DNA from: Chloroflexota bacterium
GTDB lineage: Bacteria > Chloroflexota > Dormibacteria > CF-121
DNA length: 61,383 nucleotides
Direction: 5' to 3'
Assembly: GCA_005880615.1 (NCBI GenBank)
Contig: VBID01000117.1
Location: 1 to 61,383, forward strand
Made by a program: the position numbers and the translations under genes. Of the stretch, positions 418 through 61,383 are shown piece by piece. Positions within the stretch are counted from its first letter, which is position 1. Every line of letters begins with the position of its first letter. The notes under the pieces were generated by a model. It was given only the letters and a program-made list of their open reading frames with translations. It did not search any database and was not told where the DNA came from.

Positions 418-1206
418 GTCCGGATCCACCGAGCGGACGAAGCAGATTGGGATGCGGGGCGTGCCGAGCCGAAGGGGGCGACGAGCACGTGAAGGAGCGC
501 ATCCGTCGATGCGTGACTAAGCGCGCGGAGGAGCCGACGCCCGGAGCCCGGGGCCGCCGGACGAACGAAGCAGATTGGGATGCGGGGCGTGCCGAGCCGC
601 AGGAGGCGACGAGCACGTGAAGGAGCGCATCCGTCAATGCGTGACTGAGCGCGCGGAGGAGACGACGCCCGGAGCCCGGGGCCGCCGGACGAACGAAGCA
701 GATTGGGATGCGGGGCGTGCCGAGCCGCAGGAGGCGACGAGCACGCGAGGGAGCGCATCCGTCGATGCGTGACTGAGCGCGCGCAGGAGCCGACGCCCGG
801 AGCCCGGGGCCGCCGGACGAACGAAGCAGATTGGGATGCGGGGCGTGCCGAGCCGCAGGAGGCGACGTGCACGCGAGGGAGCGCATCCGTCGATGCGTGA
901 CCGAGCGCGCGCAGGAGCCGACGCCCGGAGCCCGGGGCCGCCGGACGAACGAAGCAGATTGGGATGCGGGGCGTGCCGAGCCGCAGGAGGCGACGAGCAC
1001 GCGAGGGAGCGCATCCGTTGATGCGTGACCGAGCGCGCGCAGGAGACGACGCCCGGATCGGCCGCATCCGCGCCCAAGATGCGAGTTTGTGCCGGCGGCC
1101 TCGGGCTCAGGCCGCATCCGCGCCCAAGATGCGAGTTTGTGCCGGCGGCCTCGGGCTCAGGCCGCGTCCGCGCCCAGGATGCGAGTTCGTTTCGGTGGAT
1201 TCGGGC
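418..1206 (+). mobile_element. nested/tandemly amplified 177-bp MITE-like element (5 left arms of 128 bp, 3 right arms of 49-50 bp)
   Basis: 128-bp period with starts at 418, 546, 674, 802, 930; 50-bp period at 1061, 1111, 1161; outer IR GTCCGGATCCACCGA / TCGGTGGATTCGGGC; inner IR GCCCGGGGCCGCCGG / CCGGCGGCCTCGGGC; same family at 24673 and 31573. Confidence 0.85.
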
Positions 1207-3258
1207 TTACCCCGGCTGGTCGTCGACGCGACCGGTCAGGGTCGCCCGCAACAGGACGATGTATTCGGCGTGGGCCCAGACCAGGGGCCGGGCCGAGCCG
1301 GTCGGGGCTCCGGTCCCCTCCCAGACCTGCTCGGAGAGCAGCTGTTCCGGTCCCGCCCAGGCCTCGAGCTCCCGCACCAAGGGCGCCACGTCGTCACCGG
1401 CCAGCACGGCATACACCCCTCGCTCGCCTGAAAGCAGCGGCCACAGGTGCCCATGCCCGTCGGGCGGTCCGCCCAGTGTGCTCTCGCCGTAGCCATCGTG
1501 GGGGTACCGATACCACCCCGACCCGCTGCGGCTGTCGCCCCGGTCAACCGCATCCAGCACCGCCAGCGTGCTCCGGATCCGCGGGTCTGCCGGCGGCCGG
1601 ATGCCCAGCCGAACCAGCTCCAGGAAGCTGGGATCGACGATCAGCCGCTGATCGAAGGTGCCGCCCCCATTGGCGATGGTGAGCGGCTCATCCGCCGTGG
1701 GGTGGCCATCGGCGCTGATCCGCAGGTAATAGCCGCTGCCCAGGGGACCGCTGGTCACGTAGGTGAGGGCCTCCACTTGTGCATCCCACTGATCGGCCAC
1801 CGCCTGCCAGCGCGTCGCCTGGGCAGTCTGCTGCCCGGCTCGAGCCCATTGCGCGGCCGCCCGCAGGGCGGCGATCTCGGCCGCCATGGTGGCCGGCGAG
1901 TACCCGCTGTTCTCCTCCCAGCGCTCCTGCTCGGTGGAGGGGCCGCGGCGCAGCAGGTACTCCGCGGCAGCCGCGATGTCCGGCCCGCTCCCCGAGGCGA
2001 TCCGCGGGGCCAGGCGCACGGCCAGCAGGATGGCATCGGCGGTTTCGTCGAGCTGATCGCCCGTCCACTGCCGGCGGCCGTCCAGGTCCGTGTTCTGGGG
2101 CAGGCTGCCGTCCGCCAGCTGCTGGCTTCGCATGAAGTGGACCACATCCATGGCGGTCCGCTGGTCGCCGGCCGCCAGCAGACCGCTGGCCGCGTGGTAG
2201 AGGTCGCGCGGCCAGACCTTGCGGTAGCCGACATCCACCGGCGAGTCCAGAGTGGCGTTCCCCCAGGGAAGCGCGAGCGAGGCCACGATCGCGCCCGGTT
2301 GCTGCCGGTCCTCGGCGGCTTTGATGATCTCGGCGCTGTGGTAGTAGAGGGCAGTGGCCCGGCCGCCAAGCGAGTCGAGGCGGGCGGCATAGCGCAGCCA
2401 GCCGTCCCGATAGGCGGCGCCCACCGCTGCGAAGCCGGCCTTCAGGCTGTCCGTGACGCTGCCGTCGGCCTGCGCCTGGCTGCTGCCCATCCCTAACGCC
2501 ACCGTCCACTCACTGGCATTCGGCACCTCCCAGGTCAGCGTGATATGGCCGGGACCGGCGCGGTCATCCCGGTGCACGAGGTCGAAGTGGCGCAGCTCCT
2601 CGAACCCGTCGTTGACGCGCAGGTAGCCGGCCGTGTGTCGGGCCATCGTGGCCGTGCTTCCGACGGCCAGCCAGCGGTCGAGCCTGGATACGTAGGCGCG
2701 GTTCGGCGCGAACCAGCCGGTTTGCCCCCGTCCGCCATCGAGGAGATGCGGCACCAGGTACGCGTAAACGTGAAAACTGCGGGGCCCGATGTACTGGGTC
2801 TGCATGAGCACCACCGGCCGCGCCGGGTCGACGACAAATTCGGAGACCAGCACAAATCCATGGACCGGATCGGTCACGGTGGTCTGATACAGCAAGGCTC
2901 GGTCGTCGATGACCCGGCTGACCGCGAGGCCATCGCGCATGCTGTCGAAGAGGAAACTGGACCCGTCGGTGACCAGGTATCCGAACTGGCGCAGGTTGTC
3001 CTGGTCGACTCGGGGATAGAGGAGGTCAGCCAGGCCACCCCGGACCGCCGTGAACCAGAGGGGTGACGCCGGACTCTCCACTGCCGTACCGACGGCGACT
3101 TTGTCGCCGGTCGTCCAGACGTCCGCCGCGACCGAATGGCCGGGGGCGGTCGTGCCGGGCGACGGGGACAGGGGTGCCGTCAGCGCCAGGCTGACGACCC
3201 CCAGCCCCGCCAGCGCGCCTGTGCGTAGCAGCCCGAGCGGGTATCGACGCCGGCGCAT
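1207..3258 (-). CDS. secreted glucodextranase/glucoamylase-like glycoside hydrolase family 15
   Basis: Arg-rich signal peptide; Glucodextran_N-like start (KVAVGTA..SPLWFT..GGL.DL.YP); GH15 motifs WPRD, QERWEE, LSEQVW, PLVWAHAEY. Confidence 0.88.
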   Translation of the reverse strand: MRRRRYPLGLLRTGALAGLGVVSLALTAPLSPSPGTTAPGHSVAADVWTTGDKVAVGTAVESPASPLWFTAVRGGLADLLYPRVDQDNLRQFGYLVTDGSSFLFDSMRDGLAVSRVIDDRALLYQTTVTDPVHGFVLVSEFVVDPARPVVLMQTQYIGPRSFHVYAYLVPHLLDGGRGQTGWFAPNRAYVSRLDRWLAVGSTATMARHTAGYLRVNDGFEELRHFDLVHRDDRAGPGHITLTWEVPNASEWTVALGMGSSQAQADGSVTDSLKAGFAAVGAAYRDGWLRYAARLDSLGGRATALYYHSAEIIKAAEDRQQPGAIVASLALPWGNATLDSPVDVGYRKVWPRDLYHAASGLLAAGDQRTAMDVVHFMRSQQLADGSLPQNTDLDGRRQWTGDQLDETADAILLAVRLAPRIASGSGPDIAAAAEYLLRRGPSTEQERWEENSGYSPATMAAEIAALRAAAQWARAGQQTAQATRWQAVADQWDAQVEALTYVTSGPLGSGYYLRISADGHPTADEPLTIANGGGTFDQRLIVDPSFLELVRLGIRPPADPRIRSTLAVLDAVDRGDSRSGSGWYRYPHDGYGESTLGGPPDGHGHLWPLLSGERGVYAVLAGDDVAPLVRELEAWAGPEQLLSEQVWEGTGAPTGSARPLVWAHAEYIVLLRATLTGRVDDQPG

Positions 3259-3271
3259 CAAGCCACCGGTC

Positions 3272-12212: not shown

Positions 12213-12251
12213 CCAGCTCGTCCTCCAATGGAACGGTTTGCTTTCAGTTTA

Positions 12252-12265
12252 GTCTGGATTCGGGC
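12252..12265. repeat. 14-bp end remnant of the MITE family
   Basis: TTA|GTCTGGATTCGGGC|TAA. Confidence 0.55.
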
Positions 12266-12295
12266 TAAGTCCGGCGCTGACCCTACACTGGGGCG

Positions 12296-14316: not shown

Positions 14317-15087
14317 ATGGACTCGATCCGCGACGCGGTGCGCAGCCGATACGCCAGGACTGCGATCCAGATGCAGGAAACCGGCAGGTGTTGCGATTCG
14401 GCGTGCTGCGGGGGCACCGACGCCATCTCCGGACCCATTCACGAGGCGGACTACGTCACCTCAGAGCTGGCGGAGGTGGGCCTGACCACCGGCGCCAGCC
14501 TGGGCTGTGGCAACCCCACCGCCCTGGCGGAGCTCCACCCCGGCGAGATCGTGCTCGACCTCGGCAGCGGGGCCGGCCTTGACGTCCTGCTGTCGGCCCG
14601 CCGGGTGGCGCCCGATGGTCACGCCTATGGGGTCGACATGACCGACGAGATGCTCGCCCTCGCCAACGCCAACAAGGCCAAGGCGGGCATCCAGAACGCC
14701 ACCTTCCTGAAGGGCACCATCGAAGCCGTGCCGCTTCCAGATGCCTCCACCGACGTCGTGATTTCCAACTGCGTCATCAACCTGGCCGCGGACAAGAGCG
14801 CTGTGCTCCGGGAAGCCTTCAGGGTGCTCAGACCGGGTGGACGGCTGGCAGTCGCCGATATGGTGGAGGTGGAGCCGCTGCCGGCGGAAGTGAAGGGCGC
14901 CCTGGATGCGTGGTCGGGTTGCGTGGCCGGGACGATCCCGGTGGCCGCTTACGAGTCGGCCCTGGTCTCGGCCGGTTTTGTTGACCTGGAGGTCGAGATC
15001 ACACAGACCTTCGGTCCCGGCGAAGCCGGGCTGCCCGCCGGCGACGGAAAGATCGCCAGCGCCTACATCCGCGCCCGGAGGCCTTAG
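14317..15087 (+). CDS. arsM: arsenite S-adenosylmethionine methyltransferase
   Basis: SLGCGNP, LDLGSGAGLD, ISNCVINL and WSGCVAG motifs; N-terminal CC..CC; SD AGGAGG. Confidence 0.93.
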   Translation: MDSIRDAVRSRYARTAIQMQETGRCCDSACCGGTDAISGPIHEADYVTSELAEVGLTTGASLGCGNPTALAELHPGEIVLDLGSGAGLDVLLSARRVAPDGHAYGVDMTDEMLALANANKAKAGIQNATFLKGTIEAVPLPDASTDVVISNCVINLAADKSAVLREAFRVLRPGGRLAVADMVEVEPLPAEVKGALDAWSGCVAGTIPVAAYESALVSAGFVDLEVEITQTFGPGEAGLPAGDGKIASAYIRARRP

Positions 15088-15100
15088 CCCGGATCCGGGC
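15087..15100. repeat. 14-bp perfect palindromic end remnant of the MITE family
   Basis: TTA|GCCCGGATCCGGGC|TTA, overlapping the arsM stop codon. Confidence 0.7.
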
Positions 15101-24672: not shown

Positions 24673-24849
24673 GCCCGAATCCACCGAGACAAACTCGCAG
24701 CTTGGGCGCGGATGCGAGCGATCCGCGCGTTGGCTCCTGCGCGCGTTCGGCCACGCATCGACGGATGCGCTTCCTCACGTGCTCGTCGCCGCCTTCGGCT
24801 CATCTCGCCCCGCATCCCAATCTGCTTCAGCCGTTCGGTGGATCCGGGC
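24673..24849 (-). mobile_element. 177-bp MITE-like element, single copy
   Basis: IRs GCCCGAATCCACCGA / TCGGTGGATCCGGGC, flanked by a TAA direct repeat; homologous to 418-1206 in reverse orientation. Confidence 0.88.
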
Positions 24850-30286: not shown

Positions 30287-30333
30287 GCCCGAATCCACCC
30301 GAATCGAACTCGCATCTTGGGCGCGGGGCGGGC
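30287..30333 (-). mobile_element. internally deleted 47-bp copy of the MITE family
   Basis: TAA|GCCCGAATCCACC...CTCGCATCTTGGGCGCGG..CGGGC|TAA between convergent genes. Confidence 0.75.
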
Positions 30334-31454
30334 TAAGAAACGAGTCGAGGTCGGCCGGCGCCATTATCGGGACCGTCTGCCTGGATGGGCAGCAGGTCGG
30401 CCTGGTCGTGCTCGCCCACCAGGCTAGCGTCTGGGACCGATCGCAGGGCGGCGACGGCCCCCCGCATCTGGCCCAACGTTCGCTTGGAATCGGTGTAAGC
30501 GTTCTGGATCATGGTGCTGCCCCGGGAGATGCTGTTCTCCAGCGAGCGATCCAGGGTGGTGATTCCGTCTTCGATTTGCTGCAGATACCCTTCCAGGTTC
30601 TCGATATCGACGGTCCTTAAGTTCTGCAGGTGCAGGCGGAACAGGGCCAGGATGAATGGCACCGCCATGCTGTACGGCATCAGCACGACGCCCTCGCGGT
30701 GGGCCTCGATGTGGGCCCGCCGGCACGCCTGGAACACGGGATCCGGGACCGCCGCGATCGCCCAGGGCAGGGTCACGGACGGGTCGATGTACTGGCGGAC
30801 TTCCCGGATCTTATTCTTCAACACCCGCTCGACCTCATCGGAGATGGCTGTGCCGGCCTCGTCGGGATCGTCCCCCTGAGCCAGCCGGTCCAGGAGCTCG
30901 GGCAGCGGCCACTTACTGTCGATGGGCAGCCGCTTACCGTTGGCGAGCACGAGCGCGTACTCGACGACCTTCCCGTTGACCCGGAAATTCAGGTCGATCA
31001 TGCCCGGCGGAAACTGCTTGAACGCGTCGTGCAGGATGTTCTCGCCAGCCGCGCCCCGGGTGCGACTGCCCAGCAACACCGTCTCGATTCGCCGCGAGGA
31101 TGCCTGGATCTCTTCCTCGAGGCGCTGGCGGGCCATGGCGTCCGCCTTGAGCCGTTCGACCGCGACCCGCGCTTCCTGCACTTGCCGTCCCAGCGTTTCC
31201 TGCACCCCGGCCGAGCTCTGCACGATCCGCGTCTCCACGCCCTGCAGCGCCGTCTGAAGCCCGCCCAGCGTCTGGGTCAGCCCAACCTGCTGGGCCGTGA
31301 GGGCATCCATCTGGGCCCTCACCCCACCGAGGTCGGCCAGCGACCGGAGAAGGGAGTCGGGCGGGGTGCTCCGCCGGCCACGAGCCAGCAACCCGAGAGC
31401 CAGGCCCACCGCGCCTAGGGCGACGCCCAGCAGGACCAGATCCATGACGTTCAC
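30333..31454 (-). CDS. rmuC: DNA recombination protein RmuC
   Basis: N-terminal TM, coiled coil, RGAAGE.IL, LPIDSKWP, YIDP; SD AAGGAG before GTG 31454. Confidence 0.85.
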   Translation of the reverse strand: MNVMDLVLLGVALGAVGLALGLLARGRRSTPPDSLLRSLADLGGVRAQMDALTAQQVGLTQTLGGLQTALQGVETRIVQSSAGVQETLGRQVQEARVAVERLKADAMARQRLEEEIQASSRRIETVLLGSRTRGAAGENILHDAFKQFPPGMIDLNFRVNGKVVEYALVLANGKRLPIDSKWPLPELLDRLAQGDDPDEAGTAISDEVERVLKNKIREVRQYIDPSVTLPWAIAAVPDPVFQACRRAHIEAHREGVVLMPYSMAVPFILALFRLHLQNLRTVDIENLEGYLQQIEDGITTLDRSLENSISRGSTMIQNAYTDSKRTLGQMRGAVAALRSVPDASLVGEHDQADLLPIQADGPDNGAGRPRLVS

Positions 31455-31519
31455 TGCGACTCCTTCAAGACGTGGGCAGGACCGGTATTGCGGTCCATCC
31501 TGTCGTGGCGCATGGCGAA

Positions 31520-31554
31520 AGTCAAGCAGGGCCCTGTGACAGCTGCCTGTCACG
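31520..31554 (-). promoter_or_regulatory. palindromic operator GTGACAG-N4-CTGTCAC located 10 bp upstream of a -10-like hexamer
   Basis: Identical 18-mer TGACAGCTGCCTGTCACG also at 40918-40935 with the same spacing. Confidence 0.7.
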
Positions 31555-31572
31555 GCCGAGGCCCAGATCAAA

Positions 31573-31749
31573 GCCCGGATCTACCGGTCGGGCGCCGCAG
31601 ATCGGGATGCGGGGCGTGCCGAGCCGCAGGAGGCGACGAGCACGGGAGGGAGCGTACCCGTCGGTGCGTGACCGAGCGAGCGCAGGAGACGACGCCCGGA
31701 TCGGCCGCATCCGCGCCCGAGATGCAAGCTCGATCCGGTAGATTCGGGC
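31573..31749 (+). mobile_element. 177-bp MITE-like element, single copy
   Basis: IRs GCCCGGATCTACCGG / CCGGTAGATTCGGGC; same length and core as the 24673 and 930-1106 copies. Confidence 0.88.
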
Positions 31750-33257: not shown

Positions 33258-33583
33258 TAGGGATTGGGTACGGCCGAAGGCCGAGGGGGGAGCGGCCGGT
33301 AGGCGCTGCGATCCACGCAGCGCCGGTGCGCAAGGGTCGCGTCTCGGGCCGGCGATGGCGGATCGCGGCCCAGACCGTCGAGGCCAAGGAGGCGACGAGC
33401 ACGCCAACGCGCCTATCCGTCGATAGGTAAGTGAGCGCGCGCAGGAGCCGACACCGGCACCGGCGGAAATGGGCCGATGAGACGCCAAGCAGGCCCCGGG
33501 ATGCGACCCTGGGGTCAAAAGAAGTAGCCGTGGCGGCTTTTGACCGCCCTCAACATCGGCCAGCTGGGGGGATCTGCCCCCTA
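33258..33583 (+). repeat. long imperfect hairpin element carrying a diverged copy of the MITE core (33387-33452)
   Basis: Core AGGAGGCGACGAGCACG..CCTATCCGTCGATAGG..GAGCGCGCGCAGGAGCCGAC enclosed by different IRs (AGGGTCGC/GCGACCCT; GCGTCTC/GAGACGC); outer limits approximate. Confidence 0.6.
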
Positions 33584-59340: not shown

Positions 59341-60882
59341 ATGGCGGACGAGGCCACCACGCCCGGCCGACGCTACGTCGAGGCCGTCATCAGCGGGGCC
59401 GCCCCCCTGCCGGCCTACCTCGCACTCCTCGGGATGCGCGTAACCGCGGCCGGGGATGGCACGGCGACCTACGAAATGCCGGTCACCGAGTCGCTCTACA
59501 ACCCCAACGACGTGGCCCATGGTGGCGCGCTGGCGTCGCTGCTGGACAGCGCCATGGGGTTCGCCGTGGTCACCACATTGGCATCCGGGGAAAACTTCAC
59601 CACGGTCGACCTGACCGTCAATTTCATCCGGCCGGTCACCGTCCAGTCCGGAATGCTGCGCTGCATCGGCCGGGTGGTTCACCGCGGCCGCCAGATCGCC
59701 GTTGCCGAGGCGGTCTGTACCGACGGCGCCGGTGAACTGATTGCCCGGGCTAGCTCCACCAACCTGGTGCTGGCCGGCACGCCGCCACAAACACAGCCGC
59801 AACCGCCGCTGCCCGCACCACCGCCCGCTCCTCCAATCGCGGCCCCCCCGGTCCCCGTCATGGCTCCACCGCCGCCGCCACCACCACCGCCGCCGCCGCC
59901 GCCGCCGCCACCGCCACCGCCACCACTACCACCACCTCCTCCTCCGGTGGCTGCCTTCGTGCCACAGCCGGCTGGGTTCGGCCCTCCGCCTTCACGGCTG
60001 GAACACGAGCGGATGGCGACCACGCCGGTGACTGAGTCGCAGCCGATCGCCCCCTCGGCATTTACGCAATCGAAATGGCGCGTGCGCCTCTTCGGGGGGG
60101 ACATGACGTACATCCGGCGGGGGCAGGGACCGCCGGTTGTGTTGCTCCACGGCATCCCGAGCTCGTCGTATCTCTGGCGCGACGTGATCGATCCGCTGAC
60201 GCACTACTTCGACGTGGTGGCTCCGGACCTACTGGGCTATGGTGACTCCGACAAACGGGTGGATGCGGACCTGTCGGTGGAAGCGCAGGAACGCTACGTG
60301 ATCGCCCTCATGGAATCGCTGGGAATCCAGCGGGCGCACCTGGTGGGTCATGACATCGGGGGCGGGATCGCGCAGCTGATCGCCGCCGACGAGCCCGCCC
60401 GGGTGGGCAAGCTGGTGCTCATCGACAGCATCATGGACGACAACTGGCCCATCCCGGAGATCGCCCGTCTTCACGACCCCTTCTGGGACCAGCGGATGGT
60501 CAGCGCCGACCTGCGCAAAGGCTTCGGTGAAGGCCTCCAGGCCGGCATCGTCACCCCCGGCCGGATCACCGCCGAGCTGCTGGACGAGTGGGTCCGCCCC
60601 TTCAGCGACCAGGCCGGCCGACGTGGATATCTCCGGGCCGCCCGCGCCCTCAACAACAAGGACCTGGTATCGCGGTCCAACGACATTCGCGAGATCCGGG
60701 TCCCGACCCTGATCCTCTGGGGCGCGAACGACAAGTTCCTGGAACGGGGCTGGGCCGAGAAGCTCCATCAGAAGCTGCAGAACAGCGTGGTCCAGATCAT
60801 CGACCCGGGCGGGCACTTCCTCCCGCTGGACCGGCCGGACGCGCTCGTCCCTCTCCTGCTCCAGTTCCTCACGCAGCCCTAG
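59341..60882 (+). CDS. PaaI hotdog thioesterase - polyproline linker - alpha/beta hydrolase fusion
   Basis: NP..VAHGG....LLD (PaaI); about P20-L-P6 linker; HGIP, GHDIGG (Asp nucleophile), GHF; TACAAT 8 nt before ATG. Confidence 0.85.
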   Translation: MADEATTPGRRYVEAVISGAAPLPAYLALLGMRVTAAGDGTATYEMPVTESLYNPNDVAHGGALASLLDSAMGFAVVTTLASGENFTTVDLTVNFIRPVTVQSGMLRCIGRVVHRGRQIAVAEAVCTDGAGELIARASSTNLVLAGTPPQTQPQPPLPAPPPAPPIAAPPVPVMAPPPPPPPPPPPPPPPPPPPPLPPPPPPVAAFVPQPAGFGPPPSRLEHERMATTPVTESQPIAPSAFTQSKWRVRLFGGDMTYIRRGQGPPVVLLHGIPSSSYLWRDVIDPLTHYFDVVAPDLLGYGDSDKRVDADLSVEAQERYVIALMESLGIQRAHLVGHDIGGGIAQLIAADEPARVGKLVLIDSIMDDNWPIPEIARLHDPFWDQRMVSADLRKGFGEGLQAGIVTPGRITAELLDEWVRPFSDQAGRRGYLRAARALNNKDLVSRSNDIREIRVPTLILWGANDKFLERGWAEKLHQKLQNSVVQIIDPGGHFLPLDRPDALVPLLLQFLTQP

Positions 60883-60889
60883 ATCCGGG

Positions 60890-61383
60890 CTAAGACAACA
60901 AGCCGTCGACGACGGCGGCCGGCGTGGCCCGCCAGGCCGCCAGGCGGATCAGGGGTGTCACCTGCGGACCATGGAAGTCGTCGCCACCCGTGGCCAGCCA
61001 TCCGTACCGTCGGGCCACCTCGGCGAAGCGCTCCATCAGCCTGCGGCTGCCCGGTCCGTATGGATCGCTGGGGTCCTGCGGATAGGTCACCTCCAGACCG
61101 GCCACCCCAGAGGCGGCGGATGTGTCGAACGTCGCGCCCAGGTCGGGGATGTGCCGGTAGACTCCCGGATGGGCCAGCACCGGGACGCCGCCCGCCCCGC
61201 GGATCAGTTCCACTCCCTCCTCAAAAGAGAGGTCCTGGGCCCGTGGCACGTGGGCGATGCCCCCCGGCCCCATCAGGCTGTACAGGTCCTCTCGCGCGAC
61301 TTCCGGCCGGACGGCCTCGATCGCGGCGACGATGTGTGGCTTGCCGACGTTCCCACGGGCCCGACCGCGGACGTCCGCCCAGG
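60890..61383 (-). CDS. PHP domain protein (5' part outside window)
   Basis: GKPHI, GGVPVLAHP, GLEV.YP, TGGDDFHG motifs. Confidence 0.85.
   Translation of the reverse strand, partial: WADVRGRARGNVGKPHIVAAIEAVRPEVAREDLYSLMGPGGIAHVPRAQDLSFEEGVELIRGAGGVPVLAHPGVYRHIPDLGATFDTSAASGVAGLEVTYPQDPSDPYGPGSRRLMERFAEVARRYGWLATGGDDFHGPQVTPLIRLAAWRATPAAVVDGLLS

Follow-up and report, generated by a model that had tools for sequence, protein, structure and literature searches.

How does a dispersed hairpin repeat turn into a tandem array with unequal numbers of left and right ends? The question is raised by a 789-bp block at positions 418–1206 of the window, by which we mean the whole 61,383-nt stretch analysed here (contig C232 of the source genome, G000). 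G000 is a metagenome-assembled genome (MAG) of a soil Chloroflexota bacterium (3.59 Mb, 241 contigs, 66.7% G+C, 90.5% complete), and two congeners, G001 and G002, were used for orthologous-site comparison. The block is probably a composite of a non-coding 177-bp foldback repeat of the miniature inverted-repeat transposable element (MITE) type, in which copies were nested once and then expanded by recombination.

Architecture of the array

The block consists of five 128-bp units followed by three 50-bp units, and its length reads as 177 + 4 × 128 + 2 × 50 = 789 bp. Tandem Repeats Finder reported a 128-bp period at 437–1057 (4.9 copies, 96% matches) and a 50-bp period at 1060–1187 (2.6 copies, 97%). 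A repeat search placed 128-bp unit starts at 417, 545, 673 and 801, spaced by 128, and found the 50-nt units at 1060 and 1110 to be 100% identical and that at 1160 to match at 82%. These searches and the reading of the sequence agree with the first-pass annotation, which had described the block as something other than a simple tandem repeat and had counted five left and three right arms in it.

The modules follow each other in the order L_o-B, (L_i-B) x4, TC, (C-R_i) x2, C-R_o, where L_o and R_o are the outer arms, L_i and R_i the variant (I-type) arms, B the body and C the C module. All inner units begin directly 3' of ..GACGCCCGGA. The variant left arm at the unit junctions is complementary to the variant right arm and the outer arms are complementary to each other, a pairing scheme proposed earlier and recovered both by the repeat search and in the predicted fold. 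The search returned four inverted-repeat pairs, in which the junctions 538–579, 666–707, 794–835 and 922–963 are each matched with 1073–1114 (42 nt, 71% complementary). The predicted fold of the single-stranded DNA (ssDNA) has nested stems L1–R3, L2–R2 and L3–R1 and leaves L4 and L5 without a right arm, with an energy of -239.7 kcal/mol (z -5.0 from 20 shuffles).

Read along the + strand, unit U1 (418–545) is made of the outer left arm (418–441), as in the orthologous solo copies of G001 and G002, and the outer body, with outer alleles between body positions 55 and 117, and it ends at the internal site ..CGCCCGGA. Units U2 to U4 (546–929) each have an I-type left arm and a body, and in the unit alignment, with its period of 128, these bodies are chimeric and change from outer-like to inner-like. 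Positions 930–1106 hold a complete 177-nt I-type copy, formed by U5, which equals the I-type consensus bar one base, and the first 50-bp unit with its variant right arm; this copy is 85% identical to a solo copy at 31573–31749. The second 50-bp unit (1110–1159; C module and variant right arm) is 100% identical to 1060–1109. The outer C module and outer right arm (1160–1206), delimited by sequence, repeat search and orthologues, close the array, with a TA next at 1208–1209. The outer copy is flanked by TA on both sides in G000 and likewise in G002.

Probable single nesting event followed by expansion

At the orthologous site, which has the same two neighbours, the end of the GH15 gene and the small open reading frame (ORF), each congener carries a single copy, ~172 bp long in G002 and internally deleted in G001. 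Since the orthologues are single-copy and the outer arms of the window array match them, the outer copy is ancestral, with the inner units a later addition in the G000 lineage.

We aligned the five 128-bp units to an I-type consensus built on 14 units of seven other loci. The alignment has 12 differing positions, 11 of which vary among the units; at the remaining one, arm position 12, all five units have C and the consensus has T. U1 carries outer alleles at 55, 59, 73, 76, 101, 102, 111 and 117. In U2 the outer alleles remain at 73, 76, 101 and 111, with inner alleles at 55 and 59 and one private change, U3 has them at 101 and 117, and U4 at 117, again with one private change. U5 has no outer allele; its body equals the I-type consensus and there is one private change. 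The two inner right 50-bp units are mutually identical (100%). A regex scan found the C at arm position 12 in all four inner left arms of the array and elsewhere only at C106. Unequal exchange between the inner body on one chromatid and the outer body on its sister yields exactly such 5'-inner/3'-outer chimeras, which argues for unequal crossover and not serial insertion. From these sequence patterns we conclude that a single nesting event was probably followed by local expansion with some intra-array conversion.

The first-pass annotation had suggested a self-targeting mobile element, or recombination at an end-like internal site. One level of copy within copy stands, but repeated self-insertion is not supported, as the units are chimeric and left and right counts vary freely. 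In its full form, repeated self-insertion would have the I-type element transpose repeatedly into the internal site of the previous copy, giving a five-deep nest from which two right halves were later deleted. The internal site is indeed used in every case and has GCCCGGATC in common with the element's own terminus, and a second site (see below) provides a case of insertion into a resident copy. Serial insertion, however, predicts that U2 to U5 are all I-type, and U2 to U4 are instead graded chimeras with outer alleles. Also, left and right numbers are unequal in both directions among loci (2/3, 1/2, and no left with three right units), and locus-specific variants are common to the units within a locus. 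We regard serial self-insertion as highly unlikely.

For single nesting and expansion, the proposed history has three steps. Firstly, the orthologues place a single copy between the GH15 stop codon and the small ORF, which was already there in the ancestor of the genus. Secondly, this resident copy would have gained an I-type element with co-varying arms directly after ..CGCCCGGA, at the 3' foot of the conserved apical domain; the outcome is visible in the sequence and the mechanism is putative. The product would be L_o-B-L_i-B-C-R_i-C-R_o, with direct repeats B...B 128 bp apart and C...C 50 bp apart. Thirdly, as the chimeric cline suggests, unequal crossover or replication slippage would have expanded the left module to five and, independently, the right module to three, and intra-array conversion would have partly homogenized the units. 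Such conversion accounts as well for the difference between the outer copy and its orthologues in the inner stem segments.

Several observations count against this history or parts of it. Those stem segments read GTGCC.. / ..GGCCGC in G000 and GAGAT.. / ..GCTCG in G001 and G002, and because of this difference conversion is needed beyond insertion. The nesting junction lacks both TA and a direct repeat, and the net gain is the element + 1 nt and not + 2; as the junction is non-canonical in these respects, step 2 may be no transposition. TA stands on both sides of fewer than half of the copies in the family. In G000 we found no autonomous element with the family's ends, a weak negative as MAGs are often without copies of insertion sequences (IS), and in 41 relatives the presence of DDE_3 genes is not associated with that of the element (4 of 16 bearers vs 5 of 25 non-bearers, one of these five, G014, being flagged unpublished). 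Lastly, the unit numbers 5 and 3 rest on a single short-read MAG contig, and four soil-run Logan contig sets, which contain 54–58% of the sampled words, fragment within the repeat, none spanning the array.

The last of these points would also be expected if a short-read assembler had looped through the repeat and invented the extra units, as would the start of the array only 417 nt from the contig end and the identity of the two inner 50-bp units. But neighbouring 128-bp units differ at 2–5 positions in an ordered pattern that a graph cycle would not yield, both flanks are syntenic with two congeners, and the same 128/50-bp architecture is present at C83, C223, C183, C15 and C113 in G000 and at several G001 loci. 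A 372-nt Logan contig matches 1136–1500 without difference, which is weak support as it may derive from the source sample. An assembly artefact is very improbable on this evidence.

An obligately nested subfamily

The I-type was never found solo, in G000 or in the G001 sample. According to regex scans, each of the 16 I-type left arms in G000 has the internal site (..cccgga or ..ccggga) before it, and 17 of 18 right arms have TCA/TCC and the C module after them; for the G001 sample, 9/9 left arms and 13/14 right arms are in nested context. The claim that inner copies always start at one internal site holds for every inner unit in the array and for these 16 left arms, and the nested copies elsewhere that it called for are present at at least 10 loci in G000, with more in the congener.

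Unit numbers differ from locus to locus. Left/right counts are 5/3 in the window, 4/3 at C83, 4/2 at C223, 2/3 at C183, 2/2 at C106 and twice at C162, and 1/2 at C116, giving a range of 1–5 left and 1–3 right modules over the G000 loci. Arrays in G001 have up to 3 extra right units; in some, three right units are combined with a single inner left arm or none, and right-only arrays are present. A second nesting site, following ..GAGATGAGCG, is occupied by an inner copy at six loci; it is at the other foot of the apical domain, and the two nesting sites coincide exactly with the feet of that domain. In G000, C169 has an inner copy at the second site where the G001 orthologue is an uninterrupted solo copy, and this filled/empty pair therefore proves insertion into a resident copy at that site. 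Whole composites are also present or absent as units between G001 and G000 (L139, L140, L141), so composites may move as units.

The I-type may have reached its first site by insertion or by recombination. The nesting junction is identical in the outer copies of two subfamilies. Site-specific insertion is favoured by the second subfamily, because outer-specific sequence there resumes within a few nt of the module. Recombinational spread between copies is in turn favoured because the junction is invariant, no solo I-type exists and the flanks are changed at the window locus. In the latter explanation, the inner module would have entered and would spread by homologous recombination or ectopic gene conversion from another composite, with body and C module as flanking homology and no transposition at all. 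Besides the lack of a target duplication at a junction that is identical everywhere, this accounts for the 10–15 nt on either side of the junction that changed at the window locus from the G001/G002 type to the type that accompanies the module, and for the visible homogenization of bodies within a locus. In the other outer subfamily (C162 twice, C113 and C229), though, outer sequence is back within ~5 nt of the module's left edge and 3 nt of its right edge, which is unusually precise for conversion tracts. The presence or absence of whole composites at L139, L140 and L141 fits transposition of the composite, and the changes near the window junction could also stem from later intra-array exchange. 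Spread without transposition is in our judgement a serious but somewhat unlikely alternative to nesting by insertion. Site-specific recombination, with a circle integrating into GCCCGGATCCGGGC, was dropped for the nest since the inner copy is complete at both of its own ends.

The 177-bp family in G000

The monomer gave 104 BLAST segments at 74 loci in G000, well beyond chance, from which we aligned 46 solo copies of ~177 bp; 18 further composite or partial loci were displayed. Its predicted structure is a single long, imperfect hairpin (-109 kcal/mol, z -6.7; opposite strand -99.5), with arms complementary over ~21 nt and pairing that runs on to the apex. The element has no coding capacity: copies differ by indels, start codons are not conserved, and ORFs occur only as read-through of the array. 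Rfam 15 returned no match at the gathering score for the window and seven related loci, and with E up to 10 a single chance microRNA match. Short and non-coding, with terminal inverted repeats (TIRs) and many dispersed polymorphic copies, the element is in these respects like a MITE, and it is a very active, undescribed MITE family of uncultured soil Chloroflexota.

Two solo copies expected in the window were found, at 24673–24849 (-) and 31573–31749 (+). The G001 site orthologous to the first has a copy with an internal deletion; the second is absent at the orthologous sites of both G001 and G002. Partial copies in the window comprise a right-end fragment (30287–30326) and a core fragment (33379–33464), and an RmuC-like gene (30336–31571, -) is bracketed by the right-end fragment and the solo copy at 31573.

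Copies tend to lie at gene ends. Over 60 loci, element ends were ≤8 nt from a gene 3' end 30 times as judged by a crude GC3-based gene caller, with the left end abutting a same-strand gene in 17 cases and the right end abutting an opposite-strand gene in 13. The family is relevant for MAG assembly, as contigs break at repeats, for strain typing, and for the annotation of gene ends, as copies land on stop codons.

Target site, mobility and relics

TA is present on both sides of 20 of the 46 solo copies, at the left end of 27 and at the right end of 30, when an optional terminal A or T is allowed, and TA makes up 1.43% of the dinucleotides in G000. Rebuilt targets of the 20 TA-flanked copies are CTAG (7), CTAA (6), TTAG (2), TTAA (2) and others (3). 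Identical 3-nt flanks occur in 9/46 copies (TAA 7, TTA 2), all of which can also be read as TA plus the optional terminal base. The flanks fit a TA duplication in YTAR context, which we prefer over a 3-nt duplication because only nine copies have identical triplets and all of these are also readable as TA. A 3-nt TNA duplication of the IS5 / PIF-Harbinger type, which explains 9/46 copies vs 20/46 for TA, is the less likely reading; PF13359 had no match in G000, and the three PF01609 matches are without matching ends. Among filled/empty pairs, a perfect repeat is seen in L118, L121, L124, L128 and L145 and not in L110, L123, L144 and L146; the flanks of L110, L144 and the second-site nest look inverted rather than direct in these pairs.

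Mobility was assessed with 40 element loci from G001, whose flanks are ~90–99% identical to G000. For 24 of the 40 the flanks are adjacent in G000 without the element, six are shared, and ten were undecidable (contig ends or paralogous matches). Empty sites in relatives, which had been called for, also exist: the solo copy at 31573 is missing from both congeners. Genomes with ~90–99% identity in flanking DNA thus differ at ~60% of the loci sampled. The insertion at 31573 does not leave a clean cut-and-paste footprint, as the 'empty' sites differ and there are extra bases beside the copy: opposite window 31520–31572, G001:C93 and G002:C45 differ mutually by 8 nt, and in G000 there are 9 + 4 additional bases, among them a near-duplicate, 9 nt long, of the element's left tip (GCCCAGATC).

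Some of the 24 sites are clean empty sites and others hold a 14–16-nt relic, in which the arm tips are fused at palindromic GGATCC (e.g. L147, L148). The window contains one such relic of 14 nt (GCCCGGATCCGGGC) at 15087–15100, strand unassigned, with TTA on both sides. Diverged remnants at window ~12240–12275 and ~60880–60892 correspond to L111 and L119, where G001 keeps full copies. Genome-wide, the fused-tip motif has 48 matches (≤1 mismatch) vs 16 in a shuffled genome, and many of the real ones are TA-flanked. The relics fit deletion across the hairpin between short direct repeats. The family would accordingly spread by transposition into TA (YTAR) sites, which in a 67% G+C genome would mostly be stop codons, and would be lost by deletion across the hairpin, leaving the 14–16-nt fused arm tips.

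Search for a mobilizing enzyme

As the first-pass annotation had noted, the window contains no mobilizing enzyme. Transposase profile matches in G000 are three genes for PF01609 and two for PF13358 (IS630-like), all on other contigs, and PF13359, PF01797 and PF07282 have no match in the 90.5%-complete genome. Of the PF01609 loci C71, C89 and C110, the inverted repeats were checked at C71 and C89 and include no element-like ends; of the PF13358 loci, C148 has clear but unrelated TIRs, and at C228 no element-like ends were seen. Element ends 0.4–4 kb apart enclose only ordinary genes between separate copies, namely genes for RmuC-like, GT4, SHMT, methyltransferase, MFS, Y-family polymerase, SBP_bac_5 and LeuA-dimer proteins. 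A loose scan for the end motif with 2 mismatches was too noisy for use.

IS630 elements duplicate TA, often in CTAG. The TA/CTAG preference of the 177-bp family resembles that of IS630-type elements, which we mention as a possible analogy and as a resemblance only. The IS630-like IS of ~1.16 kb at C148:2827–3989 (L156:908–2070) encodes a DDE_3 transposase and has 22-nt inverted ends from CTAGTGTCC with CTAG-type flanks; its ends (CTAGTGTCCTGA..) are also found at C89 and C29. G000 has a second, unrelated MITE-like family with ends TAGTGTCCCGGATC.. (~15 ends) that, unlike those of the 177-bp family, resemble the ends of this IS. It occurs at C29, C32, C151, C178, C183:42402, C226, C234:6096 and window ~18828 (-), and has the 8-mer CCCGGATC in common with the 177-bp family. 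At G001 L141, an element of the second family encloses a composite of the 177-bp family.

Distribution, conserved core and folded strand

Of 41 relatives, 16 carry the element or its core, as do 22 genomes in a phylum-wide sample of 301, the bearers in the latter belonging to families f1–f4 of the class and to one family of another class. Across those families positions ~56–124 stay ~75–87% identical, and the arms are unrelated in sequence yet always complementary. In other genera the ends read TA-GTG...CAC-TA. The neighbours of distant copies are unrelated housekeeping genes, which makes a cis-regulatory leader unlikely. Three genomes of genus g5 (L006, L007, L008) have one orthologous copy with conserved flanks and compensatory arm changes (e.g. 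TGAGCC/GGTTCA vs GGGGTC/GGCCCC); because its arms differ in this compensatory way, pairing is maintained even in a vertically inherited copy.

Pairing is asymmetric between strands. In the predicted stems of the 46 solo copies of G000 we counted 2236 Watson-Crick, 275 G.T, 14 A.C and 45 other cells, a count inflated by shared descent. In 15 of 15 diverse representatives, whose arms differ between lineages, the + strand is the more stable one by 1–27 kcal/mol, with 91 G.T pairs vs 11 single A.C mismatches. Selection on host mRNAs is an unlikely cause because copies abut genes in both orientations. The wobble asymmetry in these modelled stems rather suggests that one strand must fold single-stranded during the element's own propagation. 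At only 17 of 60 loci, judged with the crude gene caller on non-independent loci, does the + strand run with the majority of local genes or with G>C skew; this orientation bias agrees with that suggestion and, if real, would mean that insertion or retention is strand-specific.

More speculatively, and with a low chance of being right as a whole, the conserved apical core could be a functional ssDNA/RNA module that occurs in foldback elements with unrelated termini across two classes and in which one strand is kept foldable by G.T wobbles in every lineage. A structure-specific enzyme would then recognize the apex in its folded state and insert copies at stem/apex junctions of resident copies as well as at TA sites, and the I-type would be a hyper-parasite with other copies as its sole target.

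Conservation of the core over four families and a second class, compensatory changes in stems, strand-asymmetric wobble pairing and the position of the array between two co-directional genes could also be read as signs of a structured RNA under host selection, either a multi-unit sponge or regulatory RNA with three GGA-containing motifs per unit or a stabilizer in a 3' untranslated region or between cistrons. Against this stand the lack of any Rfam match, the insertion polymorphism between congeners and the unrelated neighbouring genes, with gene ends abutted in both orientations (17 vs 13). The well-folding strand of the array is moreover antisense to both of its flanking genes, and the congeners manage with a single or broken copy at the orthologous site. 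A host function of this kind is the least probable of the explanations considered here, and mobile-element ancestry is preferred.

Comparison with known repeats

Bacterial MITEs with TA duplication include Correia/NEMIS of Neisseria and RUP of pneumococcus, which is linked to IS630-Spn1. The 177-bp family is like these in being short, non-coding and multicopy, in forming a whole-element hairpin from terminal inverted repeats, in lying in intergenic positions beside gene ends, in the TA on both flanks of 20 of 46 copies and in its presence/absence polymorphism between close relatives. In contrast to them, no transposase with matching ends was detected in G000, the interior and not the termini is conserved across genera, and there is an obligately nested subfamily. 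Among MITEs it is unusual to have an obligately nested subfamily, pairing that is asymmetric between strands, or termini less conserved than the core, and these three features could help to find the mobilizing enzyme.

In architecture only, the array is analogous to BOX of Streptococcus pneumoniae, which is built as boxA-boxB(n)-boxC, and to the BIME-2 clusters of E. coli: both are dispersed modular repeats with a stable fold, in which an internal module occurs in variable tandem number between fixed ends. Here, unlike there, left (128 bp) and right (50 bp) modules vary independently and every repeated module includes an arm from a nested copy, which allows the modularity to be traced to a copy-in-copy event. 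A sequence relation is not indicated by Rfam (no match), with no BOX sequence compared directly. The locus, together with the outgroup loci, shows stepwise how a dispersed hairpin repeat becomes a tandem array, and offers a concrete model of how modular repeats of the BOX or BIME-2 kind arise in bacteria.

The ERIC/IRU repeats of enterobacteria have long forms with insertions at specific internal sites, and plant Tourist/Stowaway MITEs nest. The 177-bp family is like them in its imperfect palindrome, in having MITEs within MITEs and in length variants that arise where sequence is added at fixed internal positions; it differs in that the insert is a full family member, occurs only in that position and was then locally amplified. 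PATEs derived from IS200/IS605 and the REP/REPIN-RAYT systems are likewise hairpin repeats, and the G.T strand asymmetry points to a dependence on one folded strand, as there. Against such a relation, G000 has no Y1 transposase/RAYT (PF01797) or TnpB (PF07282), the ends of the 177-bp element pair together and form no separate subterminal hairpins, and its TA flanks look like a duplication.

Among the papers listed on nested MITEs, which mainly concern plants, fungi, other eukaryotes and general tools and include one review of Acinetobacter mobile elements, the nested cases are eukaryotic only. For Limnocylindria, the titles and beginnings of abstracts listed contain nothing on repeats. The array is new in its obligately nested subfamily, the independent variation of half-modules and the conservation of the core over the termini; it is not a new category or system.

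Flanking genes

The GH15 / glucodextranase-like gene that borders the array extends over 1207–3261 on the - strand, and its stop codon (reverse complement of 1207–1209) directly adjoins the outer right end. The small ORF of 67 amino acids (200–403), on the same strand and downstream of the array, has no Pfam match, and its flank is conserved in both congeners.

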